In this document: positions 23,908 to 42,969 of the stretch, piece by piece
Layout of the letters: the number at the start of each line of letters is the position of its first letter
How positions within the stretch are numbered: position 1 is the stretch's first letter
Assembly: GCA_965222115.1 (NCBI GenBank)
Contig: CBDCTJ010000001.1
Location: 128,001-192,000, forward strand
Origin: Planctomycetota bacterium
Lineage (GTDB): Bacteria; Planctomycetota; PLA2; JAEUHO01
Reading direction: 5' to 3'
DNA: 64,000 nt
Program-made: the position numbers and the translations under genes
Notes under the pieces: model-generated
Databases searched by the model: none
Seen by the model: only the letters and a program-made list of their open reading frames with translations
What the model was told of the DNA's origin: nothing

Positions 23908-25908
23908 CTACTTGTGCTGCAGGTCACGCAGTTCGACGTCGGTGTCGCCGGGAAGGGAAAAATCGACGGATTGGTGGCCGCTACGTGCCGTGTAGTCGCC
24001 GGGTGGCATCCACGAAAACACGGCGACGCCTTCCGCGGCTCGAACCATGCGATGAAAGCCAGGGTTCTTGACCGGATCCTTTGGCAAGACCATTGTCATA
24101 GTATCGCCACCGCGCACGGTGACTTCGTAGAGCTTGGAGATGCGAAGGCGAACGTTGTTTCTTCCGGCCTTTAGTAAGACCGACTCCGTGTGGATCTTTG
24201 ACTGCGTGGGGCCCATGCCTGTTGTCTGAATCGATACAGCGAACTTCACGTTTCCGGGCTGAATGGAAGGAATGGTGACGCGCCCTTCGCTGTCGCATGT
24301 ATGCCTCGCGCCCGACATCGCAGGCTCATCCCTGTACACGCAAAGAACTTCGTTTGTCAGCCCCAACGCCTCTATACCTTCAACGACGATGGATGCCGTG
24401 GCGACCTCGCGAAAATGAACCTCAATCTCCTGGCCCGCGATCCGATCCACGCTGACGTGCTTCGTGCCATAGGACTTCGTGCGCACGGAAAACGTGTACG
24501 CTCCCTCCCCGGGCGGAGCACTTACGCCAAATGCGGGCATTACGAGCTGGCGACCATCCACCGCATGCGTCGCAAGGGCGCCACCCGATCGAGTCTGTCC
24601 ATCGCTCTTGTACAGCGTGGTAAACGTAGCCGAGGGGATGTGTGTTCCTGCGGGCCCACGCACAACCAACGTGACATATCGTGATGAATCCAATTGCGGA
24701 ACGCGGAGCGTATGGCGTTGCAAGCCAGGTCGGACGGAGACGATTTCAAATCCCTCAACGATCTGGCCGTCGCTATGCAGATGCACGTGCCTCCCGCGCA
24801 CAACCCCAAGGGCAATTCGCTCGCAGCCGGGGTTCACAATTTCGAACTCGTATTCGTTCTTTGCGTTGATGGGGCGCTCTGCTCGCTGCCCATATGCTTT
24901 CAACTTCGCTTTCGTGATACTGGACGTACCGCCCTTGACTGAATCGCGTAGGGGCGTCCACAACAGACTCGCGTCGCTGTACTCGCCCTTTGGAAACGTG
25001 ACTTGAACGACCAGAACGGGCGTGTGCGTGAGCGTCAGTTGAAGTTCGGTCGTCTCTCCTTCCGAGATCATCACATCCTTCGCCGAAGCAGTGAATTCAC
25101 TGTGTGCGCCGGCCTTCACTTCCACCCGGTAGAGTCCGGGTTGCACATCTAGGATGTTGTTCGTGGCCCTCCATTGCACGCCGAGATGCTCGTTTGCCGA
25201 GATAAACTTTACCGACGCATGCTTCTGTGCGTGCCCACGCGGCCACGCAAGTCGCAGATGACATGCCGTTCGTTTGATCGCCGTGAAGTTGACCACCGAG
25301 CCGGCCGTAACAACGGCGTGCTGTCTCCGTTTTATTCGCCACTCGTCCGAGGACGCGCGAATGTCATAGTTGGCATCAATTACTCGATCGAACTGGAACG
25401 ATCCGTCTTCGGCCGTTGTCGTCTCGACACGATTTACCGTTGTCCAGCGATCGTACCCAAGGGTCCACTCAAGCCGTGCAACGAGACGCTCCACATCTCC
25501 TTGAATCTCGGGATTGTCCTTGCGTTCCCACGTCCACTGAGGGACAGCCGAGATGATGACGCCGGATACGCCCACGCCTGCTTCGGTGTGTACCATCCCC
25601 GTGATCGTCCCGTCTCCCACCTCCGGCTCCGGATCGGGCAAGTTGAGAACGAGCTTACGTATGGCCGAGCGTTCCGGGGGCTCAGGTTCGCCTGCTTCCC
25701 TTGCATCAGACTGTGCACGCTTTAGAACAACCTGTGGCGGCCGATTGGCACGCACCTCGACGTCCGGCCTCGTCTCCTCATCCGTTTCGATCTCGCAAGC
25801 TGGCGTTGAACTTGACGATGTGCCGACTACGTAGCCTCCTGCAAATGCCGCAACCGCAATCAACCCACTCACTAATAGAATTGCGTATCCATTCACTTCG
25901 GTGCGCAT
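23908..25908 (-). CDS. Membrane-anchored protein with carboxypeptidase-regulatory-like (prealbumin/CnaB-type) repeats
   Basis: N-terminal TM; GTITGMVHTEAGVGVSGV, TTTAEDGSFQF...YDIRA, DSEGRVTIPSIQPG, AEGVAVFSWMPPGDY. Confidence 0.72.
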   Translation of the reverse strand: MRTEVNGYAILLVSGLIAVAAFAGGYVVGTSSSSTPACEIETDEETRPDVEVRANRPPQVVLKRAQSDAREAGEPEPPERSAIRKLVLNLPDPEPEVGDGTITGMVHTEAGVGVSGVIISAVPQWTWERKDNPEIQGDVERLVARLEWTLGYDRWTTVNRVETTTAEDGSFQFDRVIDANYDIRASSDEWRIKRRQHAVVTAGSVVNFTAIKRTACHLRLAWPRGHAQKHASVKFISANEHLGVQWRATNNILDVQPGLYRVEVKAGAHSEFTASAKDVMISEGETTELQLTLTHTPVLVVQVTFPKGEYSDASLLWTPLRDSVKGGTSSITKAKLKAYGQRAERPINAKNEYEFEIVNPGCERIALGVVRGRHVHLHSDGQIVEGFEIVSVRPGLQRHTLRVPQLDSSRYVTLVVRGPAGTHIPSATFTTLYKSDGQTRSGGALATHAVDGRQLVMPAFGVSAPPGEGAYTFSVRTKSYGTKHVSVDRIAGQEIEVHFREVATASIVVEGIEALGLTNEVLCVYRDEPAMSGARHTCDSEGRVTIPSIQPGNVKFAVSIQTTGMGPTQSKIHTESVLLKAGRNNVRLRISKLYEVTVRGGDTMTMVLPKDPVKNPGFHRMVRAAEGVAVFSWMPPGDYTARSGHQSVDFSLPGDTDVELRDLQHK

Positions 25909-26052
25909 GGTGAAGCTCCCGGGACAGTGTACCGGCAAGGCATGGACAGCGCAGGCAGGACGAGGATACGAAGAACTCTTCTTGTTCTTGGATACGGGTG
26001 AGGCGAAAGATTCAGATTCGGAAACGGGGGCTGCTGGGGCAAGCCGGGGAGA

Positions 26053-27585
26053 CTACTTGATAAGAAAACCCGCTTCGACATACGCACGCCACTTGCGATC
26101 CAGTTTGCGGTAGTCAAAGCCGTAGGCTTCTTGGAGGGCGTCTTCTTCGGGCTTGTCGCGGACTTTGCTCAAGTCGATGAACTTCTTGAACTTCTCGGGA
26201 CTTAAGCGCGTCAAGTATTCCACCACACTCCACGCCTTGGCAAGTTGGGGATAGCGGAAGTTGGCTTGACCAAACTTTGCAATTCTACGCAGCGGCGAGT
26301 CGCTTCCCTCGGCGACCGCCAGCTTGAGGGCGTCGCGCCACTTGGCGGTGTCGCTCCATTTGAGAATCTCGCCTTCGCCGCCCCCCACCACGCTGTCTTC
26401 TCCGCGGCCCAAGGTGAACGTGGAACTGTAACCAATCGATTGCATTTCGAGGTGATAAGCGAAGCCCTGAAGCAACCACTGGGATGGAAACTTGTAGTTC
26501 ATCTTATAGCGCGTGAGCAAGACGTTCGAATAGCTGTGAACCACGTTGCTCACAAACGTCTTGTCCGTGTTCGGAAACTGATACACGCAAACCAAATTCG
26601 GATCCTGCGCCCACCAAAATGTGTGCTGGCGTTTGACGGCGTCGCCCCATCCAGGAATCAGCTTGTTGGCCTTCACTCGCTTTTGAAACCAATCGGCAAA
26701 CGCTCCGTAGGGTTCCGACTTTTCAAAGAGCATCAAGAATGCGCGCTCGGAACCGTCGTCCGGCAAGTCTTCCGCCGTGGGTCGTAATATCCTGCGAAAC
26801 ACGGTAAACGCTTTCTCCGCTGCTTCCGCCACGCGTTCAGCCATAGATCCGGGAATGCGATACACCACGTCCACGTGACCCGACCAGCGATAGCCATATT
26901 CAAGCCGACTTCCGAACTTGGCTTCTTTGACAAACTTCTTACCGGCCTCTTCCCCCACGCGCACCCACTTGCCTTCGTGCTTCTTGTAGCCGCGCCGTTC
27001 ATGCCACTCGTCGTCGGTGACCCAGGTGTCGCCATCTTTGCGCATGCCCTTTTGGCGTGCGTCGCGCTCTTCGGGTGTGACCCATTCGCCCTTGTACTCC
27101 ACAAGACCCTTCGCCTTGTACTCCTCAACCTTAGCCGCTTCGTCCGCTTGTTTCTTCTCCTCGGGCGACATCCACTTGCCATCAATCTTGATGTGGCCTA
27201 GATATTTTCGCGCGCGCACATCCTTGGGTTTGATCTTGATGATCTGCTCCAGGATCTCATTGAGTTCGCTCTCAAATCCCGCCGACTTTGCCCAGCGATG
27301 AAGCTTCCACAGCGCCTTGACATCGTTCTTTGCTTGCCCGGCGCGGTAGGCGAGTTGTTTGCGCAGCGGGGGCACGCTTTCATCGATGCGCTTCACGTTG
27401 TCGCGTGACACGGTCTTCACACCATCGAATGTGGTTTCGATGACGATCTCTGCGTCGCCTTGCTTGGTGATCTCCCCCTCATACACGGTGCCATCTTTGG
27501 TTTCCACAACGTCGGCGCGCGCGTCGACAAGGAACGGAATCGAGGCAACGAGCGCAAGGGCGAAGAGACGTGGACGATAGCGCAT
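26053..27585 (-). CDS. Exported protein, DUF1570/peptidase-MA-like C-domain with degenerate Zn site
   Basis: Signal peptide; DVVETKDGTVYEGEI; four G-x-x-x-x-G-x-W repeats; VVHSYSN...PSQWLLQGFAYHLE...AWSVVEYL. Confidence 0.65.
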   Translation of the reverse strand: MRYRPRLFALALVASIPFLVDARADVVETKDGTVYEGEITKQGDAEIVIETTFDGVKTVSRDNVKRIDESVPPLRKQLAYRAGQAKNDVKALWKLHRWAKSAGFESELNEILEQIIKIKPKDVRARKYLGHIKIDGKWMSPEEKKQADEAAKVEEYKAKGLVEYKGEWVTPEERDARQKGMRKDGDTWVTDDEWHERRGYKKHEGKWVRVGEEAGKKFVKEAKFGSRLEYGYRWSGHVDVVYRIPGSMAERVAEAAEKAFTVFRRILRPTAEDLPDDGSERAFLMLFEKSEPYGAFADWFQKRVKANKLIPGWGDAVKRQHTFWWAQDPNLVCVYQFPNTDKTFVSNVVHSYSNVLLTRYKMNYKFPSQWLLQGFAYHLEMQSIGYSSTFTLGRGEDSVVGGGEGEILKWSDTAKWRDALKLAVAEGSDSPLRRIAKFGQANFRYPQLAKAWSVVEYLTRLSPEKFKKFIDLSKVRDKPEEDALQEAYGFDYRKLDRKWRAYVEAGFLIK

Positions 27586-27617
27586 GAGGCCTCCCGGCAC
27601 GCGGTCAGGGCAGTATG

Positions 27618-31267: not shown

Positions 31268-32946
31268 GTCGCACAGTCTGGTTGGTGCTCCTGGGCCTTG
31301 TGGCCGTGGCGATGGCTTCCGGACTGGGGTCATTGGGTCTCGTCGACTATGACGAGGCCGTCTATGCGCAGGTGTCGTGGGAGATGGCCGAGCGCGGCGA
31401 TCTTATTCACCCCACGTTGCAGGGCGAGGGCTGGTACGAAAAGCCGCCCTTTGTGTATTGGACACAAATAGCCGGTTACGCCGTGCTGGGCAAGAACGAG
31501 TGGGCGGTGCGCATCCTCAATGTGCTCGGCGCACTTTTGGGCGCCGTCTTTCTTGCTTGGACCGTCGGCGCGTCATTTGGCGAACGCCGTGCCCAGTGGG
31601 CAAGCTTAATGTTTTTGACCTCGGCGTTCACGCTTGGGTTGTCGCAACTTGCGCTGACCGACATGTGGCTCACCACGTGGCTCGTGCTTGCCGTCGGATC
31701 GACCCTGCGAGCCATTCATCCATGGGAACAAGGGGGAAAAGTCCACAAGGGGTGGTGGGCACTGGCCTCAGTTGCTTGCGGCCTCGCGATGCTTACAAAG
31801 GGCGCGATCGGACTGCTCCTTCCTGCCGGCGCGCTGTTCTTTTATCTGGTTGCAACCAAACGGCTGCACTTCATTCGACAGGCCGGACTCATTGCTTGGG
31901 GACTCGCCCTCGCGGTGGGCATTGGCTTCTCGTGGTACCTCCTGCTTGGAATCACAGCCGAGGGCGGGTTCGCGTTCATGGGCGAACTCTTCATGGAACA
32001 CCACGTGGGCCGTTTCCTTAATCCCATGCAGGGGCACAAGGGTTCCCTCTTCTTCTACGTCCCGATCGTATTGCTAGGACTTGTCCCGTGGCTTCCGTAC
32101 GTCCTTGGCGGCATGAACACCAAACTTCGGTCGCGGCTAAATCCAGATGCGCAACGAACGCTCCTCTTGTTCGGCATCTTTGCGGGCTTGACGTTCGTGT
32201 TTTTCAGCGTGGCTGCCACGAAGCTTCCCAACTACGTGGCGCCCGTCTTTCCTGCCCTCTCGTTGTTCGGCGCCGTCCTACTCGACGACGAGCGAAAACA
32301 CGCGGAACGCAATGAATCGCCGCGCACGTGGCTTTACAAGGGTCAAATCCTTGCGTTGCTTGTCGTGGCCGCGCTTGCCATGTGTCATGTCTCGCTCACC
32401 GAATGGGCGCAGACCGATCCCCATCGCAGAGCACTCCGCGAGCTACCGGGTCTGGCACAGCCGTTTGACGCGGGCGCGGGCCCCTACGCGTTGGGTGGCC
32501 TCGCGATGCTCATTGCCGGACTGGTGTATTGGCTGTGGAAGCAGATTCAGCCGCGCATGGTAGCGGTCGTATTGGCCCTGGGTTCGGCTGCAATCTTAGC
32601 CACCTGCGCGCACATGGTGTTCCCCAGATACGACCGACACTTTCAAGCACCACTTCGATACTTAGCCACCCATGCGGCTACCTCAACCGGACCGGACGAA
32701 CGCATTCTCATGCTCGGCATACGCCATCGACCAAGCATGCTGTTTTATGGCACACGTGGCACGGAGTACTTCAGCGTGAAGCACCCCGAGAAACTTAAGG
32801 CCGCCCTTGCCGAATCCGCCCCGCGAGTGGGCATTGTGCGAACGCGCGAAGAGGTTCAACTCGTGGATGTTGCGACCGTGCAACGTCTCCAGTCGAGTGG
32901 TGGCTGGTCGCTCGTACGTGTATCGTCACTGCCGGATACGAAGTAA
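31264..32946 (+). CDS. ArnT/PMT-family (GT-C) glycosyltransferase
   Basis: ATGA overlap with the PAP2 stop; DYDEAVYAQVSWEM, YEKPPFVYW, LTKG, KLPNY; many TMs. Confidence 0.88.
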   Translation: MSRTVWLVLLGLVAVAMASGLGSLGLVDYDEAVYAQVSWEMAERGDLIHPTLQGEGWYEKPPFVYWTQIAGYAVLGKNEWAVRILNVLGALLGAVFLAWTVGASFGERRAQWASLMFLTSAFTLGLSQLALTDMWLTTWLVLAVGSTLRAIHPWEQGGKVHKGWWALASVACGLAMLTKGAIGLLLPAGALFFYLVATKRLHFIRQAGLIAWGLALAVGIGFSWYLLLGITAEGGFAFMGELFMEHHVGRFLNPMQGHKGSLFFYVPIVLLGLVPWLPYVLGGMNTKLRSRLNPDAQRTLLLFGIFAGLTFVFFSVAATKLPNYVAPVFPALSLFGAVLLDDERKHAERNESPRTWLYKGQILALLVVAALAMCHVSLTEWAQTDPHRRALRELPGLAQPFDAGAGPYALGGLAMLIAGLVYWLWKQIQPRMVAVVLALGSAAILATCAHMVFPRYDRHFQAPLRYLATHAATSTGPDERILMLGIRHRPSMLFYGTRGTEYFSVKHPEKLKAALAESAPRVGIVRTREEVQLVDVATVQRLQSSGGWSLVRVSSLPDTK

Positions 32947-33018
32947 CGCTAGCAGCCGGGGAACCTACGTTCGGATCGGGATTCACGAAGCGTGTGGCAG
33001 CGGTGAAGCAGGCCCTCG

Positions 33019-33948
33019 TCAATCGTCGAAATCCTGGCGTATGAGCTTGTACACGTCCTCGAACGGTTCTTCGTGAGATAGATCCAAGAAACGCACCACA
33101 CCCGTCTCGGCCAACGCGGCCATCGCCTTGAACTCTCGCGCCATGATGGCTTTGTCATCTAGCGCCAGGCGAAAGGAGTGTCTAAGTAGCTCGATTAGTG
33201 CATCGCCCGCATTGCACGGATGTATGCGAGATGCCGACGCTTCAGGGCGAACGACATAGATGCGTCCAATGCGCGTGAATCCATCGCTAAACCGAATGTG
33301 GGGAACATCTTCTGGTATGAAGCGACGTTTGTCTGCGTAATCGGACACCCGCCTATCTTTGGCAACCGGTGGCAAGAGGCGCGCCGCGTCTCGCGGCCAA
33401 AGACGAATTCCCTGGTAGGTAGCGAGTGCGCTCCAAACGCCGTTCCGCTCTCGGACAACAAGCGAGTCATCCCCGAGATGTTCAAAGCCGCGCAGCGCGA
33501 AATTGAGCGCCAGTGTCGACTTCCCTGCGCCCGTCTCGCCGAGGAAAATGATCGTTCGTCCCTTGGAGGCCACGGCACTCCCATGGACCAAATGTCTTCC
33601 ATGCAATGTAAGAGCGCGGGGTATTGCGTTGTCCAGGAGATAGTGCTCCATCGTGATCGCCGAACAACTCGGCGCCGTCTTGACCACCATGCCGCTTCCA
33701 TTGCGCTTTATGTCTGCGAATAGTTCATTCCACACGACAAGCTTGTACGAATCGTGGGTGCTATGAATGGTAAAGGAGGACGTCTCATCCTCTTCGTCTT
33801 CATAGATGCATGCGCCACCGGGTGACGCCCCATCCCATGTATCGCCACGACGGATATCCAGTAGCGCCTGGCCGTTATCCGCGGTGGGCAAGACATCCGA
33901 TGCGTCCGACATCGAGACGACGATGTCTCCGAATTTGTAGCGCCTCAC
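33019..33948 (-). CDS. HPr-kinase-related P-loop kinase (lasso-peptide kinase-like)
   Basis: LVHGSAV, GETGAGKST, LGDD, IRLWP, DKRR; GTG start 10 nt after the methyltransferase stop. Confidence 0.85.
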   Translation of the reverse strand: MRRYKFGDIVVSMSDASDVLPTADNGQALLDIRRGDTWDGASPGGACIYEDEEDETSSFTIHSTHDSYKLVVWNELFADIKRNGSGMVVKTAPSCSAITMEHYLLDNAIPRALTLHGRHLVHGSAVASKGRTIIFLGETGAGKSTLALNFALRGFEHLGDDSLVVRERNGVWSALATYQGIRLWPRDAARLLPPVAKDRRVSDYADKRRFIPEDVPHIRFSDGFTRIGRIYVVRPEASASRIHPCNAGDALIELLRHSFRLALDDKAIMAREFKAMAALAETGVVRFLDLSHEEPFEDVYKLIRQDFDD

Positions 33949-33958
33949 TGCAGAAACC

Positions 33959-35104
33959 CTACTCGGCGTACTTTTCCGCCAACTCTCGAACGAACTGGAG
34001 AGCTGCGTCGCGTGACGGATAGGACTTGGGCGACATTGATTGGACGACGTCGGCAATCTCTTCCGTACTTCCTGTTCCGTCCATCTTGCCAAGTGCCTCG
34101 CGTGCCGTACGGCCTTTAGGGGTCAATGTAGGCCGATAGCCGGATGCATGCTTGCGGGCCATGTCCGCGTTGAACGTCTCTCCCAAGAACTCGGATTGCC
34201 TCATGGTAATGTCCTTGCGACCTGTGCCTCGAACGCTCGCACGCCAAGTCCATATGTATCCGTCGTGCGTTCGCGAACCGCGGAAGCCTATCGTCAATTC
34301 GTCGCCACGGCGCAACTCAACCGCGTCCCGCAGCGGAAAATAGGCTCTTCCGTAGGCGGGCACAGGCATGCCCGGCGAGTTTCGCATTTGAATGTTTTCC
34401 GTGAGATCAGATTCAAACCAGACCTGAGCGGCATCCACCGTTACCGGCCGATGTGCGGTCCAGGTGGCCTGCCCATGAAAGTCCTGCTTAGGTTCTTCGC
34501 GGTATTCAAGTGTTGCCCAATGCCGTGCGGGAAGCACGACCTCTTCGGCTTCGACACATTGCTTCTGCCAGCTATGGACCATCGTTTCGACAAGCGCGGC
34601 CACGTCGATGCCAAAGTCCCAGTCGCCCCAAGGCCGCATGTGATTCGTCCACGTATCGGGTGCGTAAACGGGAGCCACAAACATGCGGTCCCTGAGCGCG
34701 ATCACGGCGGCATCGCTTGTCACAAGTCGGGTCCGGGCGTCGTGTACCGACTGCCAATTGGCTCCATGGTGGGGCATGGTGCCGCGCATATCGGATAAGA
34801 GCACGCTCCCTTGCTCTGGCAAGTCGACGTTGGTTGAAACGTCATGAATCGTGGTTACGCGATCGGCGAATCCCTCCTTCTTGATCAGTTGCTTCGCCAA
34901 TGAAATCGACGCCCTGTCCGACTCAATGGCGTACACATGTTTTGCGCCCGCACGACAGGCCAAGATCGTGAAAAAACCGGTCCCGGACCCAAGCTCCACA
35001 ACGACATCCCCAGCGCCCACCACTTCGTCGATGGCGTCGGCGTACGCAGGTGCGCGTACGGGATCGATCATCGTTCCATAAGCACGTATCGAATATCCAC
35101 TCAT
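33959..35104 (-). CDS. SAM-dependent methyltransferase with protein-arginine-methyltransferase (PRMT)-like fold
   Basis: MIDPVRAPAY, VVELGSGTG, VYAIE, LLSDMRG, VWFESDL, NSPG...YFPL; GGAG RBS. Confidence 0.85.
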   Translation of the reverse strand: MSGYSIRAYGTMIDPVRAPAYADAIDEVVGAGDVVVELGSGTGFFTILACRAGAKHVYAIESDRASISLAKQLIKKEGFADRVTTIHDVSTNVDLPEQGSVLLSDMRGTMPHHGANWQSVHDARTRLVTSDAAVIALRDRMFVAPVYAPDTWTNHMRPWGDWDFGIDVAALVETMVHSWQKQCVEAEEVVLPARHWATLEYREEPKQDFHGQATWTAHRPVTVDAAQVWFESDLTENIQMRNSPGMPVPAYGRAYFPLRDAVELRRGDELTIGFRGSRTHDGYIWTWRASVRGTGRKDITMRQSEFLGETFNADMARKHASGYRPTLTPKGRTAREALGKMDGTGSTEEIADVVQSMSPKSYPSRDAALQFVRELAEKYAE

Positions 35105-35216
35105 GACGACTCCATCGAATGACGCAAAGAAGCCTTGCGATCAACTCGACCACGACGAAACGGGTGCGCGGGTCATAGAACGGGCAACCGCAAGCACGCG
35201 AAATTTGTCTTGCGAC

Positions 35217-35510
35217 CTAGGAGCCCGGCTCAGCAACGAGCAATCCCTTTTCAAGGAGCTGCTCGACAAGGGCATGAATATCCCCGTTCGCTCGGTCGCG
35301 TTCAACATCAAACTCGCTCGTAAGCTCGTCCAGTGTCCGGGCAATCGAACCGTGTTCGCTTATAGAAGTCCAAATAAACGTACCCACTTCATTGAGGCCG
35401 AAGTACGTCCCAGAGGCGAGGTCTACGAGCACCGACTCTTCCTCGGAGAACGAACGAAAGAGCACATCGGGGGAGACGCGAACGTCTCGAGTTGTCTTGG
35501 ATGCGGTCAT
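35217..35510 (-). CDS. PqqD family RiPP recognition element (lasso B1-like)
   Basis: ESVLVDLASGTYFGLNEVGTFIW...LTSEFDVERDRANGDIHALVEQLLEKGLL; 97 aa. Confidence 0.93.
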   Translation of the reverse strand: MTASKTTRDVRVSPDVLFRSFSEEESVLVDLASGTYFGLNEVGTFIWTSISEHGSIARTLDELTSEFDVERDRANGDIHALVEQLLEKGLLVAEPGS

Positions 35511-35833
35511 AGGTCTGTCCCATCCCCCAAAATTGAGAACAACGATGAATCGCCGGTTGCATTCAACATGGGGAGCTTGCCCGAGGCAACCTCATGTCGC
35601 TCGAATACTCAAACTAGAGGAATTCGACCGGCCAATTGGACGGTCTACGAGGCGAAGCGCCTAAACATCCGCGTTCGAGCGGCACTACCTCTGAATTCGA
35701 CCTTGGCGGCTTCCGAACTGCCTTACAGACGGGCGCACAGTTGCACCGCACATCGAGGAATCCCTCGCCCATGAAGGGTCCGTACGTAGCATTTATGAGC
35801 CCCGTCACGGGGTGCGGAGCTCTGGGAGGAGTC

Positions 35834-36961
35834 ATGGTTCGGATCGCGCTCACAATCCTCGCTGCAATGTTGATCTCGGGATGCGCAGCCCCATTTCTTC
35901 AACGTCCGCAGGCGGCTGACGACTGCCCCTCCTGCCAGCCCGCCTTGAGCGACGAGATCGCAAAGTCGGCATTCGCACACACGGCCGAACCCGATTCCGG
36001 CGACACCTACTACGGCGCCGGCGGGCACCTGATCCCCAGCATCGGCGCGTCGATTCACGGTGGCCGCGTCATTCGTCGCACCAAGGACTGGACACTGGCG
36101 CTTGAAGCCGAGTTGATGGGCCATTTCATTGACGACGAGGCGTTCGTGGACGACGGCAACCCGGCTGCGGACCCCTTCATTCAACTCAAGACGGGTGTGA
36201 AGTTTCGCTCCAACCCCTCGGGCTTTCGCCACTGGACGGCACGAGCCGGTCTCACCTACTTTTACGCGGGGAAAGACCCCAATATTGTCCAGGACGAGGG
36301 CAGCTACCTCGGCGTCTACGGCGGAATTGGTTACGAGACGGACATTACCCAAAACATCACGGTGGGCCCGGAGCTGAGCCTCACGGTCGCATCCAAAGCC
36401 GACGAAATCGACTTCAGTCATGGCGTCGTGCCAACGCTTTCGTGGCGCGTGACGTGGTGGCCGGGTGGAAACGGATGCTCCCTTGACCGCTGGCGCAAGC
36501 CCGGCGAACTCTACATGGACCTTGCGGCAATGGCACTGCCGTCCATAGGCGGCGGTTTCGGTTTCGGCCAGGTGTTCTCGCGCGAAGACGGTAAAACGTG
36601 GTCCTTTGAAGCCTTGGCGGGTCTCCAGTCGCTCGACGACGGCACGCTTTGGGCCGACTCCGATGGAGAGTTTGGTCAGTTCCGTGGCGGCGTCAAGGTT
36701 GCGTTTGCCGACCGGGGCATGGGCCACTGGGTCGGCCGCGCGGGGCTCGCCTTCTTAAGAAACACGGGCGAGATTCAGGGCTTTTCCGACACCGGCGACT
36801 ACTTCGGTGGCTATGTAGGCATCGGCTACGAGTTTGAAATCAATAAGTGGCTCACGATGGGTCCCGAGATCTCTCTCACCGTGGCCGACAAGGAAGGCCT
36901 CAGCGACATCGACATTGAGGTGCTGCCGCAGTTCCTCTGGCACGTCATCATCAAGTTCTAG
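35834..36961 (+). CDS. Outer-membrane beta-barrel lipoprotein with two tandem barrel domains
   Basis: GGAGGAG RBS; lipobox ISGC; duplicated PSIG...G-Y-G-Y-GIGYE...GPE...W; C-terminal Phe. Confidence 0.72.
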   Translation: MVRIALTILAAMLISGCAAPFLQRPQAADDCPSCQPALSDEIAKSAFAHTAEPDSGDTYYGAGGHLIPSIGASIHGGRVIRRTKDWTLALEAELMGHFIDDEAFVDDGNPAADPFIQLKTGVKFRSNPSGFRHWTARAGLTYFYAGKDPNIVQDEGSYLGVYGGIGYETDITQNITVGPELSLTVASKADEIDFSHGVVPTLSWRVTWWPGGNGCSLDRWRKPGELYMDLAAMALPSIGGGFGFGQVFSREDGKTWSFEALAGLQSLDDGTLWADSDGEFGQFRGGVKVAFADRGMGHWVGRAGLAFLRNTGEIQGFSDTGDYFGGYVGIGYEFEINKWLTMGPEISLTVADKEGLSDIDIEVLPQFLWHVIIKF

Positions 36962-38247: not shown

Positions 38248-39414
38248 CTAGAAGTGCCAAGTGACGTGCCACTTGAGCATGGGGAATGAGGCGTCATCAC
38301 CACCGTGGGAAATGTTGGTTCCATAGACGAACGCAACTTCCGGCCCGGTCGAGATGTTGTCGGTGATGAACCAATCGAATCCGATGCCGGCATAGGCGCC
38401 GAGGTAGGAACCGTCGTTATCCACTGAGACCGTGTCCCAGCTAATGCGAATCGGTTCGCCGGTAAACTCAAACAACGTGGCGCCAGCGCGCACGAACGGA
38501 CGGAACGCGGAGTTTTTGTTTCCAAAAGCAAACTTGGCACCAAGGCGCAACGCCCAGAACTTCCCTGTCTCGGGCTCCTCCAGGATTTCCTCCCAGAGAT
38601 CTTGGTACGTGGTACTTACCTCAAGGGAAGTCGTTGCTCCGAAGTAGGTGCCAATCTCCTTACCCACGGTGATGCTGCCACCAATACCGGGGGAAATCTC
38701 GAACGCGCCCTCGACATACCACTTGTCGCAACAGCTCTTGCACGCGCAGACGGGCTTCTTCTTGCAGCACGTCTTCTTCTTGCATGCGCCACAAGCTGCT
38801 GCGGGCGAGGTGCGCGGGGCTACACCGCGGTCACTGCGCATAATGGTGGTACCGGCGATGGGCGCAGGCGTCACGTAGGGTTGCGCCATTGGCGTTGCGT
38901 AAGGCGTTGCCGGGTAGGCCGATGCGTAACCCGTAGCCGGCGCGGGTGAATAGGGCACGACCGGGGCAGGAGCGTAGTACGGAGCAGGAGTCGGGGTATA
39001 GGGAACCACAGGAACCGGCTCGCTGTAGGGGATGCTCTCGCTTGGCATAGGTACCGTTTCGGTGTACGGCGCCGGCATGCCATTCGAAGCTCCCTCAGCA
39101 GGGGGAAGTGGCACCGGCTCACCGGCCGGAGGTGCGTCTTCCGTAGCAAGTCGACTTACGTCATTCGAGGGTGCGACAACAACACCTTCCGTAGTCACGC
39201 CGGTCGTTGTGGCGTTCGCGGAACCCATCGCGCCGGTCGAATCCGCAGACGGCGCATTGATCGTCGCGAGTGCGTTGCCCTGTGCAGGCAATACGCCGTA
39301 GTCCAAGTCGGAACCGGAACCAAAGATGGCCCCCGATCGCTCGACACTCGATGCGCAGGCCGAAAGTCCAATGGCCGCCGCGAAGCACGCGCAAAGCGCT
39401 ACTGTGCGAATCAT
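38248..39414 (-). CDS. Outer-membrane beta-barrel lipoprotein with Pro/Tyr-rich linker and Cys/Lys-rich motif
   Basis: Lipobox LSAC; PY/PAP-rich stretch; CGACKKKTCCKKKPVCACKSCC; barrel GSYLGAYAGIGFDW...GPE...WHVTWHF; GGAGG RBS. Confidence 0.72.
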   Translation of the reverse strand: MIRTVALCACFAAAIGLSACASSVERSGAIFGSGSDLDYGVLPAQGNALATINAPSADSTGAMGSANATTTGVTTEGVVVAPSNDVSRLATEDAPPAGEPVPLPPAEGASNGMPAPYTETVPMPSESIPYSEPVPVVPYTPTPAPYYAPAPVVPYSPAPATGYASAYPATPYATPMAQPYVTPAPIAGTTIMRSDRGVAPRTSPAAACGACKKKTCCKKKPVCACKSCCDKWYVEGAFEISPGIGGSITVGKEIGTYFGATTSLEVSTTYQDLWEEILEEPETGKFWALRLGAKFAFGNKNSAFRPFVRAGATLFEFTGEPIRISWDTVSVDNDGSYLGAYAGIGFDWFITDNISTGPEVAFVYGTNISHGGDDASFPMLKWHVTWHF

Positions 39415-39607
39415 GTTCACCCTCCCTCAAGATGCACGCCGCCCTCCTGGGACGTACCCTCGTGTGAATCGTCTAAGCTAGTTGAGTCGGTTGAAATGAT
39501 CCATTCATGCGCCCGCTGCTTCACAAGAAACGAGAAGGGAGGCGGCCGCCAGAGCTCATCGAATACGCTTACGTAGCGTGCTGTTCGGCTTGCTCATTGG
39601 TATCTCG

Positions 39608-40042
39608 TTAGCCCAGCTTTCCCAACCGAGTGTGACGACCCGGTCCCTCACCAACCGTTGGCGTTCCGTCAACCTCAACCCACGCATGGGCGCCAAAGTC
39701 CTGTTTCTTCCCACTTGCTGCGATATGAATCTCACTCGATACACCTGCCTGCGCATAGAGCGCCCGTGCGCCGAGGGCTTGCGGCAAACAAGACGCGCGC
39801 GGGACAAAGCGCGGCGTGGACGAAACGGCGGATTCGATCTCGGGTGGAGGCACACGAGACGATGCACGTAACTGGGGCGTGTACGCCGCCCCTCGACCCA
39901 AGAGCGCCAACGTCTTCTTGGTGCCGACCACGTTCAAGCTCATGCGGGCCGCGGCCACCCAAACAATAGCCCAAAATCGGATCTGGCCTCGTCGAATGCT
40001 GCGGGGACGTCGGGTGACAGGAAAGCGCACGGTTGCCCTCAC
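39608..40042 (-). CDS. Lasso peptide biosynthesis B2 protein (transglutaminase-like leader peptidase)
   Basis: SCLPQAL (Cys), AHAWVE (His/Glu), VGE; 144 aa. Confidence 0.88.
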   Translation of the reverse strand: MRATVRFPVTRRPRSIRRGQIRFWAIVWVAAARMSLNVVGTKKTLALLGRGAAYTPQLRASSRVPPPEIESAVSSTPRFVPRASCLPQALGARALYAQAGVSSEIHIAASGKKQDFGAHAWVEVDGTPTVGEGPGRHTRLGKLG

Positions 40043-40078: not shown

Positions 40079-41839
40079 TCAAGCCAGCGGAACGTCATCG
40101 AACGGACCCTTCACGACGCGAACATGTCCGCGCTCTACGAGTAGACACCGATCGGCCGAGTTAAGAGTGCTTCGTCGGTGCGCAATGATGAACGTCGTTC
40201 GCCCCTCCATGAGCCGCTTCAGCGCGCCCAAGATTTCACGTTCCGTATCGACGTCGAGAGCACTCGTCGGTTCGTCGAGTATCAGTATCGGGGCATCGCG
40301 CAAGAACGCGCGCGCAATTGCAACGCGCTGCCGCTCGCCGCCGGAGAGCTTCACGCCACGCTCGCCAACCTGCGTGTCATATCCCTCGGGCATCGCTGAG
40401 ATAAACGCATGCGCGGAAGCGCGCCGGGCGGCATCTTCAACTTGTTCGCGGGAGGCATGTACATCGCCGACGATGATGTTGTCCACAATCGAACCGGAAA
40501 ACAGAACCGGGTCTTGTTGAACAATGGCGAACTGTCTCCTGAGATCTGCAAGAGCAATCGATCGAATGTCGACGCCATCCAGACTCACACTGCCCGAAAG
40601 AGGATCGTAAAACCGCGGAAGAAGCGAGAGCAATGTGCTCTTCCCCGATCCGGTGCGCCCGGCCACGCCCACGCAACTCCCGGCGGGAATCTCCGCGCTC
40701 ACGGCGTCAAGGACATGCCGCCCGTCTCCGTAACCAAAACGCACATCGCGCAGTGAGACATCGCCGCGGGCCCGATCGAGCCTTTTTGGATGCACCGCAT
40801 CTAAAATCTCCGGTTCTTCGTCGAATACGTCATAGACCCGGCTCACGCGAGCCAAAGCGCTTTGCAGATCGGCTACGCTTGCGCCAAGTGCTCGAATCGG
40901 TGCGTAGAGTTGAGACAGATACGTAAGCGCCATTAAGAGCTCGCCCAAAGTGATTTTGCCCTGCAACACGTGGCGCGTCCCTACGACCAATACTAGCGCG
41001 CCCCCTATAGCTGCGGCCATGCCCATGAGGAAGCCAAGTGCGTTTCGCGCGCGTACGGCCCCCATTTGATCATTGATGGCCGAGCGGTTCTTCTCGATGT
41101 GTGCCGCCTGCTGACGGGACTCCAGTCCATAGGCCTTTACCACGCGGATCGCGTTCAAAGATTCTGACACGATCGAAAGCGCAGCACTGTCGCTCTCATG
41201 CGCGGTCCGCCATCTACGCCTGAGCGCCCGCCGAAACATCTCCACCAAAACGAATACAACGGGCGCCCCGAGCAACGCAATGCCCACGAGCGTCGCATCG
41301 ATCTGCGCAGTAACGATTAGCAACAGCACGACCTTGGCCAGAAGAGGCATCATGGTGAGCATGCCTTCCATGACAACACTCTGAATGGCATACACATCAA
41401 CTTGCGCGCGATAGAGCAGATCCGAAGTTTTGTTGCGCTGATGAAACGCGAGCGACAAACGCTGCAAGTGGCCCAGAAGTTTCGCGCGAAAGTTCCGCAC
41501 GAGGTGCTCACTCGTCCATGAGTAATAAACCCAGTAGAAGTAGCGCCTCACGAGCGTAACGATCGCGATCACCACTAGCCCTACCGCGCAGAGGTAAAGC
41601 AACGCCTCTCCGTCCTGGGTCCACGACGTGAGAAGCCAGTTGGTGAGGTAGTCGGGTGCCGGCTCATCCCCAATCACACAGTCAACGACGATTTGAAGCG
41701 GAATTGGAAACAGTAGCGCCAGGGGCGCCGCGAGCAGCCCAAGCACCAACAACGCCGCCAAGTGTTTCCAAAGCGGACGCGCCTCACGAAAGAGCCGGCG
41801 ATAGAGTGTCCAGTCACCAAGGCGTGTGTATGGAGACAT
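40079..41839 (-). CDS. ABC exporter, fused TMD+NBD
   Basis: GRTGSGKST, LSGGERQR, ILDEPTSALD, IAHR; directly upstream of and co-oriented with B2. Confidence 0.92.
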   Translation of the reverse strand: MSPYTRLGDWTLYRRLFREARPLWKHLAALLVLGLLAAPLALLFPIPLQIVVDCVIGDEPAPDYLTNWLLTSWTQDGEALLYLCAVGLVVIAIVTLVRRYFYWVYYSWTSEHLVRNFRAKLLGHLQRLSLAFHQRNKTSDLLYRAQVDVYAIQSVVMEGMLTMMPLLAKVVLLLIVTAQIDATLVGIALLGAPVVFVLVEMFRRALRRRWRTAHESDSAALSIVSESLNAIRVVKAYGLESRQQAAHIEKNRSAINDQMGAVRARNALGFLMGMAAAIGGALVLVVGTRHVLQGKITLGELLMALTYLSQLYAPIRALGASVADLQSALARVSRVYDVFDEEPEILDAVHPKRLDRARGDVSLRDVRFGYGDGRHVLDAVSAEIPAGSCVGVAGRTGSGKSTLLSLLPRFYDPLSGSVSLDGVDIRSIALADLRRQFAIVQQDPVLFSGSIVDNIIVGDVHASREQVEDAARRASAHAFISAMPEGYDTQVGERGVKLSGGERQRVAIARAFLRDAPILILDEPTSALDVDTEREILGALKRLMEGRTTFIIAHRRSTLNSADRCLLVERGHVRVVKGPFDDVPLA

Positions 41840-42138
41840 GGAGCCGTCGTGTCCCTAAGAACCTGGGAAACCAACATACGTCAACGAGCCAGATCAACCA
41901 CGCCCTGTCCCGCTTGGAATCGCCTCCACGTTCGAGTACGCCCAAGATCACCATCCCCCCGGAACCGTTGACTTGACAGGGCGCGAGCATTTGCGATAGC
42001 CGGTCGCGACCGGGCATCACCGCCGCTTGTCTTGACTTCGGCGACATACTCGGAATCGATTGGAGGCGGAGGGGAACGGGCGGTGAAACATGTAACCGGC
42101 GCGGGTCGTTTCGTACACCCGCATTTGCGCACCCGGCA

Positions 42139-42969
42139 TTGATCGGTGGAGCTAGAGTGTTCCCTGTGACGGAAGGTCCCGAAATTCAATCCATGCTCCT
42201 GGGACGCAATTACCAGGACGGCGACGCGCGCGTGACGTGGAATTCTCGGTGTGGGCGGGCAGACGCTGCCCTCGCTCGCGGGCACGTCAAGCCGGAGAAC
42301 GAGGACGCGCTCCTGGTTCGATTTCGTGATGATACGTGGCTGGCGCTGGTTGCCGACGGCCATTTGGGACACGCCGCCAGCCACGAACTGACCGAGGCGT
42401 TTGCGCGGGCACCTGCGGGGATTACGGGCTCGCCGATGGCACTGGGGCACTTCATCGAAGAGACGCTCCATGGCGCGACACCCCAGCCGGAGGCAGGCAC
42501 TACCCTCACCGTGTGCGCATTGGACATGCGACGACGCGAGCTCTTTGGTTACTCGTGGGGCGACTCGACGGCGGCGATCCTTCGTTCCGGCAAACGTCCC
42601 CGTGTGCTGACCAACAAAAATGGCAACTTCATTCGACTAGACGAATCGATACCGCCTCCACGCCCACAAACGTTTTCATGCCGCATACCCTTTGAGAGCA
42701 CGTTGCTGCTCTACACGGACGGCGTTGACGAATGCCACTACCGGCATCCCGGATCTTCGATCCGCATTCATCACATTCAGAATATCTACGAACGAGCGCG
42801 GGCTTCATCGTCGTCAATGGCTGAACAACTCTTGGACGCAGCACTCGATGGTCTGTCGGGTATGCCGGGCGGCGAAGACAACATTGCCATCCTCTCGATC
42901 ACGCCCGATCAGCGTGCCAAGACGGGCGCGGGTGCTACGCCTGAACGATTCGTGCCCGTGGGTCCTTAA
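42139..42969 (+). CDS. PP2C/PPM family Ser/Thr phosphatase
   Basis: ENEDAL, VADGHLG, GTTL, WGDS, YTDGV, EDNIA; start uncertain. Confidence 0.85.
   Translation: MIGGARVFPVTEGPEIQSMLLGRNYQDGDARVTWNSRCGRADAALARGHVKPENEDALLVRFRDDTWLALVADGHLGHAASHELTEAFARAPAGITGSPMALGHFIEETLHGATPQPEAGTTLTVCALDMRRRELFGYSWGDSTAAILRSGKRPRVLTNKNGNFIRLDESIPPPRPQTFSCRIPFESTLLLYTDGVDECHYRHPGSSIRIHHIQNIYERARASSSSMAEQLLDAALDGLSGMPGGEDNIAILSITPDQRAKTGAGATPERFVPVGP

Follow-up and report, generated by a model that had tools for sequence, protein, structure and literature searches.

The window, a 64,000-nucleotide stretch of a Planctomycetota bacterium genome, carries a gene for a SAM-dependent methyltransferase (M) that has the fold of the protein arginine methyltransferases (PRMTs), with its SAM-binding residues kept and its arginine-binding residues replaced. 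To our knowledge, PRMTs are held to act on arginine alone and to be all but confined to eukaryotes. Members of the M family are nearly always found beside a peptide kinase in lasso peptide clusters, and they therefore probably place an undescribed methyl mark on a small ribosomal peptide. We see about an even prospect that M is an active non-arginine PRMT-fold methyltransferase of a widespread, uncharacterised kinase-type lasso pathway, acting on an anionic oxygen. The gene and the regions of its product that carry the argument are:

33959-35104, minus strand: gene for the PRMT-fold SAM-dependent methyltransferase M, 381 amino acids, ATG start, one open reading frame at exactly these coordinates
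34700-35104, minus strand: Rossmann, SAM-binding half, about residues 1-135, with the alpha-Y residues M12..D14..R17..Y21, motif I G39-x-G41-x-G43 and the post-I acid E61
34772-34795, minus strand: altered double-E loop, residues 104-111, S-D-M-R-G-T-M-P against S-E-W-M-G...E in PRMTs (HMMER alignment to PRMT6)
34217-34699, minus strand: beta-barrel of the PRMT type, interrupted by a helical arm, about residues 136-296 (DSSP of the model)
34349-34360, minus strand: equivalent of the THW loop, P-A-Y-G, residues 249-252, with His changed to a small or aliphatic residue and Trp to Tyr
33962-34216, minus strand: extra C-terminal helical domain, residues 297-381 (PRMT alignments stop near residue 309)

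All six strings on which the initial annotation of this DNA relied lie in the translation of this reading frame, for which no strand had been given: MIDPVRAPAY (residues 12-21), VVELGSGTG, VYAIE, LLSDMRG (residues 102-108), VWFESDL and NSPGMPVPAYGRAYFPL. It also foresaw automatic naming as PrmA, and relatives do bear the name '50S ribosomal protein L11 methyltransferase'. Pfam PrmA (PF06325) matches the protein with 25.8 bits against a cut-off of 22, over residues 24-85 only (profile positions 154-215 of 296), and the NCBIfam model TIGR00406 (prmA) reaches 22.1 bits against a cut-off of 183.15, over residues 24-89 only. The generic methyltransferase and PrmA matches from Pfam fall within residues 24-100, and the window protein gave no full-length match to a PrmA model that takes in the N-terminal L11-binding domain. 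The family is large, with 667 clusters at 50% identity (E≤1e-30), and one metagenome scan yielded at least 484 relatives. A single copy of the gene is found in the genome as assembled, at about 90% completeness; scanning the genome contigs with the single methyltransferase protein found no relative. In our literature search, neither the family itself nor any PRMT-like enzyme from a lasso or RiPP cluster turned up in a paper.

A phmmer search against all PDB chains returned 95 distinct sequences at E≤1; among the matches listed (60), all belong to the PRMT family, led by PRMT7 (4c4a_A, E 7.9e-17) and PRMT6 (E 1.6e-13). Chance cannot account for a sequence resemblance to PRMTs of this degree. 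An AlphaFold2 model built on 136 relatives (pLDDT 96.2, pTM 0.90) has PRMTs as its best Foldseek matches throughout, for instance PRMT6 4y2h_B with E 3.7e-26 over 323 columns. In an all-against VIA structure search over 48,161 chains, the first 15 are all PRMTs, with Z scores of 24.9-32.6 and 283-306 residues aligned in the model range 1-309; the alignments to PRMT2, PRMT3, CARM1 and PRMT6 span model residues 1-306 or 1-309. Behind the PRMTs come Trm5 (Z 12.9) and PrmA (Z 12.6 and 12.4), the latter over about 140 residues of the Rossmann part alone. As PRMTs alone match over both the Rossmann half and the beta-barrel, the barrel is present and PrmA, with its lower Z scores, is not the better match. 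The complete two-domain PRMT architecture that had been read from motifs is thus upheld by Foldseek and by the structure search of the predicted model, and PF22528 (PRMT_C) matches are present in relatives.

Conservation was assessed by column counts over an alignment of 136 relatives, with 80 metagenome relatives as a second set. The SAM motifs are strongly kept: M12 in 130, D14 in 120, R17 in 134, Y21 in 119, G39 in 136, G41 in 135 and G43 in 134 of the 136, with Glu (110) or Asp (26) at position 61. The alpha-Y Arg, the GxGxG motif and the post-I acid are all present and align to their counterparts in PRMT6 and PRMT7. PRMTs hold the guanidinium of arginine between two glutamates. In the PRMT6 alignment, S-D-M-R-G of the window protein lies over S-E-W-M-G, and G114 lies over the second Glu. 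The first-Glu site, position 105, is Asp in 133 relatives and Glu in 3; position 106 is Leu, Met, Ile or Val; and position 107, which is Met in PRMTs, is Arg in 119 and His in 15, a pattern repeated in the metagenome relatives (Arg 73, His 7 of 80). Around them, G108 (132/136) and P111 (136/136) are conserved. The column aligned with the second Glu varies (Gly 49, Gln 25, Glu 17, Asp 9), so that the pair of invariant glutamates is not found. Nor is a THW loop: the window protein has P-A-Y, with Tyr251 in 128 of the 136 relatives and Ile (61) or Val (56) at position 250, and the metagenome relatives have Tyr (77) or Phe (3 of 80) at position 251. The family has therefore exchanged the W-M that follows the first Glu in PRMTs for [LMIV]-[RH], and THW for [IV]-Y.

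These counts bear out what had been proposed from the single protein, namely a double-E loop with Glu changed to Asp, no evident second Glu, and PAY in place of THW. The retention of SAM-binding residues alongside the loss of arginine-binding ones runs through the family, and the pocket changes are a conserved trait and not the quirk of one copy. In another lasso-linked subfamily, Asp likewise replaces the first Glu but the Arg takes the place of the THW Trp, which suggests that a pocket of Asp plus Arg is what selection favours. Other related bacterial subfamilies, separate from that of the window, keep E..E and H/N-W. When Arg and His at position 107 were compared with the type of core tail in the linked precursors, no link was visible.

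The C-terminal domain has a weaker affiliation. Modelled alone by AlphaFold2 (pLDDT 86), it forms four helices, of which the last three make a bundle, and no sheet. PqqD-like RiPP recognition elements (RREs) are winged helices with a three-stranded sheet and three helices. Alignment of the domain to PqqD proteins with hhalign gave a probability of 52.7% and E 1.4e-4 over 43 columns, covering the helical half only; Pfam PqqD matched 2 of 17 domain sequences, with a best E of only 0.059. In the VIA search the domain ranked PqqD 3g2b_A first of 48,161 chains (Z 6.2), but helical proteins of no relation to it scored practically the same (Z 6.1), while the lasso B1 6jx3_B and TbiB1 5v1u_A scored Z 5.3 and 4.9. 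Foldseek with this domain returned nothing at E<1. The domain is possibly half of a PqqD-like leader-binding module, its likeness to an RRE being weak.

The genes around M place it among lasso biosynthesis functions:

35217-35510, minus strand: PqqD-family RiPP recognition protein (lasso B1), 97 amino acids, Pfam PqqD 9.1e-18, upstream of M in the same operon
33019-33948, minus strand: HprK-related peptide kinase (K), Hpr_kinase_C 2.8e-5 and TIGR04352 3.2e-7, both below cut-off
39608-40042, minus strand: lasso leader peptidase B2 (transglutaminase-like), 144 amino acids, NF033537 62.1 bits against a cut-off of 33, Pfam Transglut_core3 4.7e-15
40079-41839, minus strand: ABC exporter (fused permease and ATPase), ABC_membrane 3.2e-35, ABC_tran 6e-31, 36 nt upstream of B2

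The order in the window operon is B1-M-K, with M between the PqqD protein and the kinase, and B2 and the exporter lie 4.5 kb upstream. The best NCBIfam models for B1 are lasso PqqD chaperones, below their cut-offs. The start of the kinase is uncertain (GTG at 33948 or ATG at 33912, with the mechanical reading frame running from a TTG at 34092); it carries the full catalytic motif H170-x14-G-x2-G-x-G-K-S-x15-D-D, with the spacing of BsfK as given in the available portion of PMC10368454. From its position alone, the exporter is likely the lasso 'D' transporter. The window as a whole is a polysaccharide/LPS locus with glycosyltransferases, sulfate activation genes and sulfotransferases. A 20-amino-acid reading frame at 35507-35569 (minus strand), whose end makes an ATGA overlap with the PqqD start, was considered as a precursor and rejected; it is probably a chance frame, as it has no counterpart in any of 18 genome loci. 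When 32800-36000 was scanned for promoters and terminators, nothing promoter-like appeared, and there were two terminator-like sites where 3.4 would be expected.

The rest of the pathway was sought across this genome. The searches of the roughly 90% complete assembly found one PqqD protein, one strong kinase match, one B2, one NTP_transf_5 protein (N) and two cyclase-like Asn synthases. Two precursor matches emerged as well, with E-values of 4.9e-5 and 0.0037, and each has a cyclase or N as its neighbour. The precursors are A1 (C1:200707-200853) and A2 (C1:206232-206375). The precursors, cyclases and N lie 38-44 kb from the window genes, in the same polysaccharide super-locus. Being single copies in the genome as searched, the B1, B2, K and M of the window are the sole ones found that could process both precursors. 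Against the lasso reading, the operon here is atypical, with B1-M-K and not K-M, and polysaccharide genes separate the precursors from M; in this genome a glycan-related role is conceivable.

Across the family the linkage is tighter, and the canonical gene order runs B1 (PqqD)-B2-C (cyclase)-A (precursor)-K (HprK-like kinase)-M-N (NTP_transf_5); L066 and L070 are compact examples, with two precursor genes (B1-B2-C-A-A-K-M-N). Among 18 genome loci of the same phylum, 17 have the HprK-like kinase, 17 a PqqD protein and 14 NTP_transf_5. All 33 metagenome loci of at least 7 kb have the kinase, which in 31 of them stands immediately upstream of M. A lasso precursor is present at 30 of these loci, a cyclase at 29, PqqD at 21 and N at 19, and a single-sequence search of low sensitivity picked up B2 at 14. 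Precursor, B1, B2 and cyclase thus all accompany M at the level of the family, and the window itself has B1 and B2. Most metagenome loci are compact lasso operons with no glycan genes between the parts. N is absent from 14 of the 33, including L057, L072, L103 and L132, which have full flanks, and M therefore does not depend on N. The precursors share an invariant Y..P.L...G.....T leader, and Asp or Glu stands at core position 7-10 in 53 of 53 cores. A Tat-type peptide occurs in none of 80 metagenome loci of the window's subfamily. None of six longer relatives inspected for a fusion of kinase and methyltransferase proved to be one. Of the longer relatives, P0132 has a PhyH-like domain and P0180 a domain resembling FkbM.

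Which group receives the methyl was approached through a residue census of 53 unique cores of the linked precursors, an argument that assumes the same kind of acceptor in all members and each neighbouring precursor to be a substrate. Arg and His are each found in 16 cores, Met in 31 and Lys in 45; the features that all cores share are Ser/Thr (53/53), the C-terminal carboxylate and the backbone, and no others. Two cores have no Lys, Arg or His, and one has no Lys, Arg, His, Asn or Gln; their methyltransferases keep the standard pocket. Met was rejected as a universal acceptor on its count of 31, and a spare Asp or Glu was rejected as well, as in 32 of 53 cores the single acidic residue is the ring former. 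The peptide substrate with an acceptor other than Arg that the initial annotation proposed fits the lasso/RiPP gene context and the scarcity of Arg. That annotation had noted neither this operon setting, nor the kinase partner, nor the additional helical domain at the C-terminus. Of the acceptors it named, His and Lys are mostly disfavoured as universal ones. The macrolactam of a lasso peptide consumes the core N-terminus, which removes that candidate too, whereas a backbone nitrogen would still be available.

In the mechanism that we favour, the PqqD protein would hold the precursor by its YxxPxL...G.....T leader, the kinase would phosphorylate a core Ser or Thr, and M would move one methyl from SAM to the same peptide. 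The favoured acceptor would be either the C-terminal alpha-carboxylate, with a methyl ester like that of lassomycin as the product, or the kinase-made phosphate, yielding a methyl phosphate. Arg/His107 and Tyr251, oriented by Asp105, would bind the anion where PRMTs hold the guanidinium. In this genome the pathway would be split, with B1, M and K in one window operon and the precursors, cyclases and N distant. That the substrate is a peptide we infer with high confidence, and for a peptide substrate O-methylation of an anion is slightly favoured. The version in which the methyl caps a kinase-made Ser/Thr phosphate of a lasso peptide, to give a methyl phosphodiester, is tentative; it draws on the kinase being present in 33 of 33 loci and adjacent in 31, on the Arg/His plus Tyr pocket, and on Ser/Thr as the sole universal side-chain type. 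We know of no methyl phosphodiester in ribosomal peptides. For the binding of a cationic or NH donor group, one would expect just such a near-invariant Asp in place of the first Glu; it counts against O-methylation and leaves room for N-methylation.

A lasso-tailoring N-methyltransferase is the alternative to be taken most seriously, although we consider it doubtful. M would then modify the Lys epsilon-amine of a C-terminal [K]-[T/S] tail, or a backbone or side-chain amide, with Asp105 binding the nitrogen and Arg107 binding a neighbouring phospho-Thr or the C-terminal carboxylate. PRMT-fold enzymes and PrmA, the nearest bacterial neighbour by Rossmann similarity, are N-methyltransferases, and besides the frequency of Lys in the cores (45/53), Lys or Arg stands within the last six residues in 46, [K/R]-[S/T] near the end in 36 and 'KT' within the last five in 28. 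Eight cores, however, have no Lys, and the two without Lys, Arg or His are served by methyltransferases with the same pocket. A [K/R/M]-[S/T] pair lies within the last five residues of 41 of 53 tails, and this swapping of Lys, Arg and Met before the tail Ser/Thr speaks more for a role in recognition than for one as acceptor; a pocket with Arg or His would also be an unusual place for a cationic amine. Retained methylation of protein or peptide arginine, with Asp105 in place of the first Glu, appears very improbable. The PRMT fold and SAM site would allow it, Asp is able to bind guanidinium, and precursor A1 of this genome has two Arg in its core. Yet the second Glu and the His-Trp of THW are gone family-wide, the bacterial subfamilies that keep E..E and H/N-W form separate groups, and 37 of the 53 cores, that of precursor A2 of this genome among them, contain no Arg at all, which makes Arg an unlikely acceptor.

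M might also act on a sugar and not on the peptide chain, either on a hexose-type group possibly added by the NTP_transf_5 protein or on a unit of the surface polysaccharide of this locus. The glycosyltransferases, sulfate activation and sulfotransferases of the window suit this idea, Asp, Arg and Tyr are generally common in sugar binding, and NTP_transf_5 accompanies M in 14 of 18 genome and 19 of 33 metagenome loci; PsmN-type proteins put hexoses on phospho-Ser, according to the available part of PMC9266682. We nevertheless think it unlikely, since several loci with full flanks have K and M without N, since the strongest linkage is to the precursor (30/33) and the kinase (33/33), and since most metagenome loci are compact with glycan genes absent between the parts. 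Still more remote is the idea that M has lost its catalysis and would serve only to dock the precursor or kinase, as a scaffold or chaperone. The heavily altered substrate pocket invites such a role, and the extra helical domain could mediate docking. Against it, the SAM motifs are 81-100% conserved in the 136 relatives (E61 is Glu in 81% and Glu or Asp in 100%) and the new pocket residues are nearly invariant; conservation of both points to selection on catalysis. O-methylation of a lasso peptide, our preferred reading, would in its methyl phosphodiester form make M, if true, the first known PRMT-fold enzyme to methylate oxygen and not arginine nitrogen. Should the activity be confirmed, a much-studied natural product class would gain a new tailoring reaction and perhaps a new modification, the PRMT scaffold would be seen re-aimed at another acceptor, and a common error of annotation, the name 'L11 methyltransferase', would be put right. 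Operons with the canonical order B1-B2-C-A-K-M-N are ready candidates for heterologous expression.

Type I PRMTs (PRMT2, PRMT3, CARM1, PRMT6 and PRMT1; e.g. PDB 9qca, 2fyt, 5is8 and 5lv4) share with the window protein the two-domain fold, at Z 31.7-32.6 over 294-306 aligned residues and 17-21% sequence identity, as well as the alpha-Y M..D..R...Y residues, motif I and the post-I acid. Unlike them, the window protein begins 11 residues before the alpha-Y helix, with no preceding stretch, and adds an 85-residue helical domain that has no counterpart in solved PRMTs. It also differs from eukaryotic PRMTs in being bacterial and encoded in a RiPP operon, with likely substrates that mostly have no Arg. 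The likeness to PrmA is that of two class I Rossmann methyltransferases; PrmA has no beta-barrel, and the context of the window gene is a lasso operon and not a ribosomal one.

SAM-dependent tailoring of lasso peptides is already represented by LasF/StspM and LihM/TceM, in common with the role proposed for M. StspM methylates the lasso C-terminal carboxylate to a methyl ester on the linear precursor, in the portions of PMC8498205 and PMC9266682 available to us, and this acceptor is one of our two favoured ones; LihM and TceM are PIMT homologues whose methylation of Asp leads to aspartimide. Both families are unrelated to that of M: the available part of PMC9266682 has StspM modelled on mitomycin 7-O-methyltransferase and LihM as a PIMT homologue. 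The Pfam matches of the window protein at E≤0.01 include no small-molecule O-methyltransferase or PCMT family. The distant relative P0178 has a sub-threshold PCMT match in its Rossmann part (19.9 bits against a cut-off of 20.3). Linkage to a kinase, as at the M loci, is not described for StspM- and LihM-type clusters in the portions of the sources used here.

Sister methyltransferase subfamilies lie in cassettes of PqqD, HprK-related kinase and NTP_transf_5 without a cyclase, beside small Tat-signal-like peptides, unlike the lasso-linked subfamily of the window. We liken these cassettes to the HPr-rel-A system (TIGR04352/TIGR04353) and to the 'linear polyphosphorylated peptides' known from Bacillota; the text of the paper on the latter (PMC13381572) does not contain the word 'methyl'. 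For the tight linkage of K and M, a purely functional analogy is offered by WbdD of E. coli O9a, which phosphorylates first and then methylates that phosphate (PMC3482155, in the part available). WbdD differs in its glycan substrate, its eukaryotic-type kinase domain, its different methyltransferase domain and its single fused chain. Among the closest pathways are the kinase-type lasso clusters for paeninodin (PadeK), pseudomycoidin (PsmK/PsmN) and the bsf peptide of Bradymonas sediminis (BsfA/B1/B2/C/D/K/N), in which B1 and B2 are split as they are here. The extracts consulted on these systems give them the same HprK-like H..GxxGxGKS..DD motif and spacing and a nucleotidyltransferase-like N, and in the bsf system B1 stimulates the kinase (PMC10368454, in part). 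Those extracts describe no methyltransferase gene in the PadeK, Psm and bsf clusters, whereas in the family analysed here M is inserted beside K.

The methyltransferase gene proposed in the initial annotation, whose protein we call M, matches an entry of the ORF listing exactly, and all six motif strings quoted for it are found in its translation.

33959..35104, minus strand: M gene, ATG start, 381 aa

The likeness to PRMTs is borne out by database matches. Searching all PDB chains with phmmer, 95 distinct sequences match M at E<=1; the best 60 of these 95 are all PRMT-family, led by PRMT7 (7.9e-17) and PRMT6 (1.6e-13), followed by CARM1 and PRMT1, 8, 2, 3 and 9. Pfam covers the Rossmann part only, with generic methyltransferase models at E about 6e-6 and PrmA over residues 24-85 at 25.8 bits, slightly above its cut-off of 22, and all NCBIfam models fall far short of their cut-offs (TIGR00406 prmA, 22.1 bits vs 183).

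An AlphaFold2 model of M, built on 136 relatives, reached a pLDDT of 96.2 and a pTM of 0.90. Its best PDB matches by Foldseek are all PRMTs, among them PRMT6 (4y2h_B, E 3.7e-26, TM 0.67, 323 columns) and PRMT2 and T. brucei PRMT1 (TM 0.69-0.70). Among 48,161 representative chains, 15 PRMTs head the structural ranking (Z 24.9-32.6, 283-306 residues aligned, model residues 1-309), and a gap in Z separates them from Trm5 (12.9) and PrmA 1ufk (12.6) and 3grz (12.4), each aligned over ~140 residues. Since the beta-barrel is present in the model and PrmA and small-molecule enzymes match worse, the predicted PRMT architecture stands.

The acceptor site is where M departs from PRMTs. The PRMT6 alignment pairs S-E-W-M-G with S-D-M-R-G of M, and the second Glu of the double-E loop with G114. 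A phmmer search of 1.84 billion representative proteins returned 6,810 matches at E<=1e-3, of which 667 reach E<=1e-30. The best 150 are almost all full length (~380 aa), and an alignment of 136 taken from them gave the column counts listed here.

Residue counts in the alignment of 136 relatives of M (numbering of M)
M12: 130/136
D14: 120/136
R17: 134/136
Y21: 119/136
G39, G41, G43: 136, 135 and 134 of 136
E61: 110 E, 26 D of 136
D105 (PRMT first Glu): 133 D, 3 E of 136
Position 106 (PRMT Trp): L 99, M 15, I 14, V 8 of 136
R107 (PRMT Met): 119 R, 15 H of 136
G108: 132/136
P111: 136/136
Second-Glu column: G 49, Q 25, E 17, D 9 of 136
Position 250 (His of THW): I 61, V 56 of 136
Y251 (Trp of THW): 128/136

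The rewired double-E and THW residues noticed in the single sequence thus prove to be replaced family-wide. Because the cofactor contacts are conserved while the acceptor site is replaced, M looks, on these alignments, like an active but re-aimed enzyme.

Other bacterial PRMT-like groups retain E...E and H/N-W, including short forms of ~320 aa, forms of ~400 aa with a PqqD-like N-terminal extension and actinobacterial forms of ~295 aa. Among these, P0018-P0028 (~400 aa, E...E and H/S-W kept, N-terminal extension PqqD-like in look) are candidate true RiPP arginine methyltransferases. In the Tat-peptide sister subfamily of M, the first double-E position is still Glu and the THW site reads L-W-G-Q. 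Fused forms also occur: in P0132 the PRMT-like part is followed by a PhyH-like dioxygenase domain, and in P0180 it is preceded by an FkbM-like methyltransferase region. In a quick IQ-TREE phylogeny each motif/context group forms one branch (support 97 for the D-x-R-G group of the window, 99 for a second lasso group, 95 for the Tat-peptide group), with weak deep nodes (support 58); as the groups were defined partly by motifs, the tree can show no more than that the motifs characterise clades. One Tat-peptide locus, L049, is absent from both motif table and tree.

The gene neighbourhood of M points to lasso peptides.

35217-35510, minus strand: PqqD-family protein, upstream of M (Pfam 9.1e-18; best NCBIfam models lasso PqqD chaperones)

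Downstream, an HprK-related kinase gene starts 10-46 nt past the M stop, and its motif H170-x14-G-x2-G-x-G-K-S-x15-D-D has spacing identical to the catalytic motif of the lasso kinase BsfK (H148/G163/G166/G168/K169/S170/D186/D187) as given in the excerpted text of PMC10368454. A lasso B2 peptidase (NF033537, 62.1 bits, cut-off 33) and an ABC exporter lie ~4.5 kb upstream on the same strand; no lasso cyclase was found within the 64-kb window. Two outer-membrane beta-barrel-like proteins (PF13505), at 38248-39420 (-) and 35636-36961 (+), separate the PqqD-M-kinase operon from B2, the former with a long Pro/Ala/Tyr-rich region and a Cys/Lys-rich stretch ahead of its barrel. A 20-aa ORF at 35507-35569 (-), its stop overlapping the PqqD start codon (ATGA), is probably due to chance, since it has no counterpart among 18 related loci. 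Neither Pfam nor NCBIfam gave a match for a 196-aa ORF upstream of the exporter (41881-42471, -).

The remainder of the window is taken up by a cell-surface polysaccharide locus, with glycosyltransferases, UDP-sugar enzymes, sulfate activation, sulfotransferases and a flippase. At 46410-51189 and 60251-61006, a CysN/C-like fusion, a CysD-like protein and a second APS kinase adjoin two sulfotransferase-family genes, which suggests that the surface polysaccharide is sulfated. Separately, a Ser/Thr protein kinase of 1,319 aa and, after it, a small protein with an FHA domain (17482-21952, -) lie upstream of large proteins without family match (21934-27600).

The missing pathway components were located by whole-genome searches of the 4.55-Mb assembly, which is about 90% complete. 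A precursor HMM gave two matches (E 4.9e-5 and 0.0037; next above 0.1), 9-15 kb past the right edge of the window and 38-44 kb from M.

C1:200707-200853 and C1:206232-206375: precursor matches on the contig of the window, beside a cyclase and beside NTP_transf_5

The searches also turned up a single copy each of PqqD, B2 and NTP_transf_5 and a single strong HprK-like kinase, along with two Asn synthases. Among NCBIfam models these two score highest with the lasso cyclase (178 and 197 bits, both short of its 525-bit cut-off). Because no second B1 (PqqD), B2 or strong kinase copy was found in the ~90% complete assembly, the window genes would be the only candidates found to serve the two precursors. 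At C1:200707-207628, the precursors, cyclase-like Asn synthases, NTP_transf_5 and a GT2 glycosyltransferase are interleaved, so the lasso pathway is dispersed within a polysaccharide super-locus. This stretch adjoins genes for a Wzc-type tyrosine kinase, a WecA-like initiating transferase and a sigma-54 activator.

A profile search of 401 same-phylum genomes found an M homologue (E<=1e-20) in 55, including that of the window. We analysed 18 full-length loci, ~8 kb each side where the contig allowed (five under 8.5 kb), using HMMs from the window's neighbours and their counterparts; counted over kin, which are not independent samples, HprK-like kinase occurs in 17/18, PqqD in 17/18, NTP_transf_5 (PF14907) in 14/18 and an Asn-synthase-type cyclase in 8/18. 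L047 is the only locus in which none of the four was found. All-against-all comparison of small ORFs in these loci yielded two candidate-substrate families. Lasso precursors occur in 8/18 loci, directly upstream of the M gene in four, and the motif Y..P.L...G.....T is invariant across ten aligned precursors. The second family consists of small peptides marked by a Tat-signal-like motif, S-[KR]-R-[DE]-F-L-K-K; they occur in 8/18, within a cassette of PqqD, HprK-related kinase (TIGR04352 E 2e-21, below cut-off), methyltransferase, peptide and NTP_transf_5 that has no cyclase.

Tat-type peptides: L036 7793-8029(-), L037 3999-4220(+), L041, L042, L048 (two), L049 (two); also L038, L040

The tails of these peptides are short and rich in Lys/Pro, Asn/Gly or Met. 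When metagenomes were scanned with 12 D-L-R-G sequences, at least 599 stretches matched, at least 484 of them encoding relatives, and 80 loci were kept; in high-GC loci, genes were called by HMM on six-frame pieces.

Genes in metagenome loci (all 80; the 33 of >=7 kb), counted over kin; contig ends often truncate the loci below 7 kb
Kinase: 60/80; 33/33
Lasso precursor: 48/80; 30/33
Cyclase: 42/80; 29/33
PqqD: 30/80; 21/33
NTP_transf_5: 29/80; 19/33
B2: 18/80; 14/33 (too low, as detected by single-sequence search)
Tat-type peptide: 0/80; 0/33

The usual order, on one strand, is B1-B2-C-A-K-M-N (PqqD protein, leader peptidase, cyclase, precursor, kinase, M, NTP_transf_5), of which the B1-M-K order of the window is a rearranged version. 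Directly upstream of M stands the kinase in 31/33 loci of >=7 kb and the precursor in the other two.

M residues 297-381 lie outside the PRMT match. Modelled alone, they form four helices and nothing else, the last three a bundle (pLDDT 86). Profile-profile comparison aligned 43 columns with the helical half of PqqD proteins (probability 52.7%, E 1.4e-4), and an all-chain structural search placed PqqD 3g2b_A first (Z 6.2, rmsd 2.2 Å, 49 residues), on a par with unrelated helical proteins (Z 6.1); lasso B1 6jx3_B (Z 5.3) ranked 18 and TbiB1 5v1u_A (Z 4.9) ranked 30. Pfam matched 2/17 sequences of the domain (E 0.059), and Foldseek gave no match at E<1. That the domain is half of a leader-binding module is a lead rather than a finding.

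The substrate of M is very probably a lasso precursor or peptide. We compared 53 unique cores from D-x-R-G-pocket loci (48 metagenomic and 5 genomic, two of the latter belonging to the genome of the window). All 53 have D/E at core position 7-10, the single acidic residue and ring former in 32/53, and all contain Ser or Thr; Asn or Gln is present in 46/53, Met in 31/53, Arg in 16/53 and His in 16/53. Lys is present in 45/53, [K/R/M]-[S/T] stands in the last five residues of 41/53 and 'KT' in those of 28/53, and the main rival reading has M N-methylating a tail Lys. K, R and H are all missing from two cores, one of which also lacks N and Q, and yet the methyltransferases of these cores have the usual pocket, S-D-L-R-G-V-L-P and x-V-Y-G. 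Should all members of the subfamily share one kind of acceptor, it is none of Arg, His, Lys, Met and a spare Asp/Glu; Ser/Thr, with or without a phosphate, the C-terminal carboxylate and the backbone are then left.

By general enzyme chemistry, a pocket of Arg/His and Tyr, with Asp possibly orienting the Arg, would suit an anionic oxygen. The second lasso-linked subfamily (L035, L039, L043, L044, L045, L046, P0015) also has Asp at the first-Glu position, with no Arg at +2 and an Arg exactly at the PRMT THW-Trp site (x-D-R-x-N), as though the pocket Arg had moved there, which strengthens the idea that the Asp and Arg pair matters. M would then O-methylate the tail carboxylate or a kinase-made phosphate, a proposal whose chances we regard overall as evenly balanced.

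Both favoured acceptors have precedents. The lassomycin-type C-terminal methyl ester is made on the linear precursor by StspM, an enzyme unrelated to M, according to the excerpted texts of PMC8498205 and PMC9266682, and WbdD phosphorylates and then methylates the same phosphate (PMC3482155, abstract). Our literature search turned up no report of PRMT-like enzymes in RiPP clusters, although supplementary cluster tables could list such genes. Likewise, in the excerpted accounts of three kinase-type clusters (paeninodin, pseudomycoidin, bsf), K and N are named and no methyltransferase is, with the same proviso for supplementary tables, and 'methyl' is absent from the text of the paper on linear polyphosphorylated peptides (PMC13381572). 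The passages seen of reviews from 2021, 2022 and 2026 describe only C-terminal O-methylation (LasF/StspM) and PIMT-type Asp methylation of lasso peptides. Judged from its sequence and gene context, M is a real, uncharacterised enzyme that is part of a known class of system, lasso-peptide tailoring.
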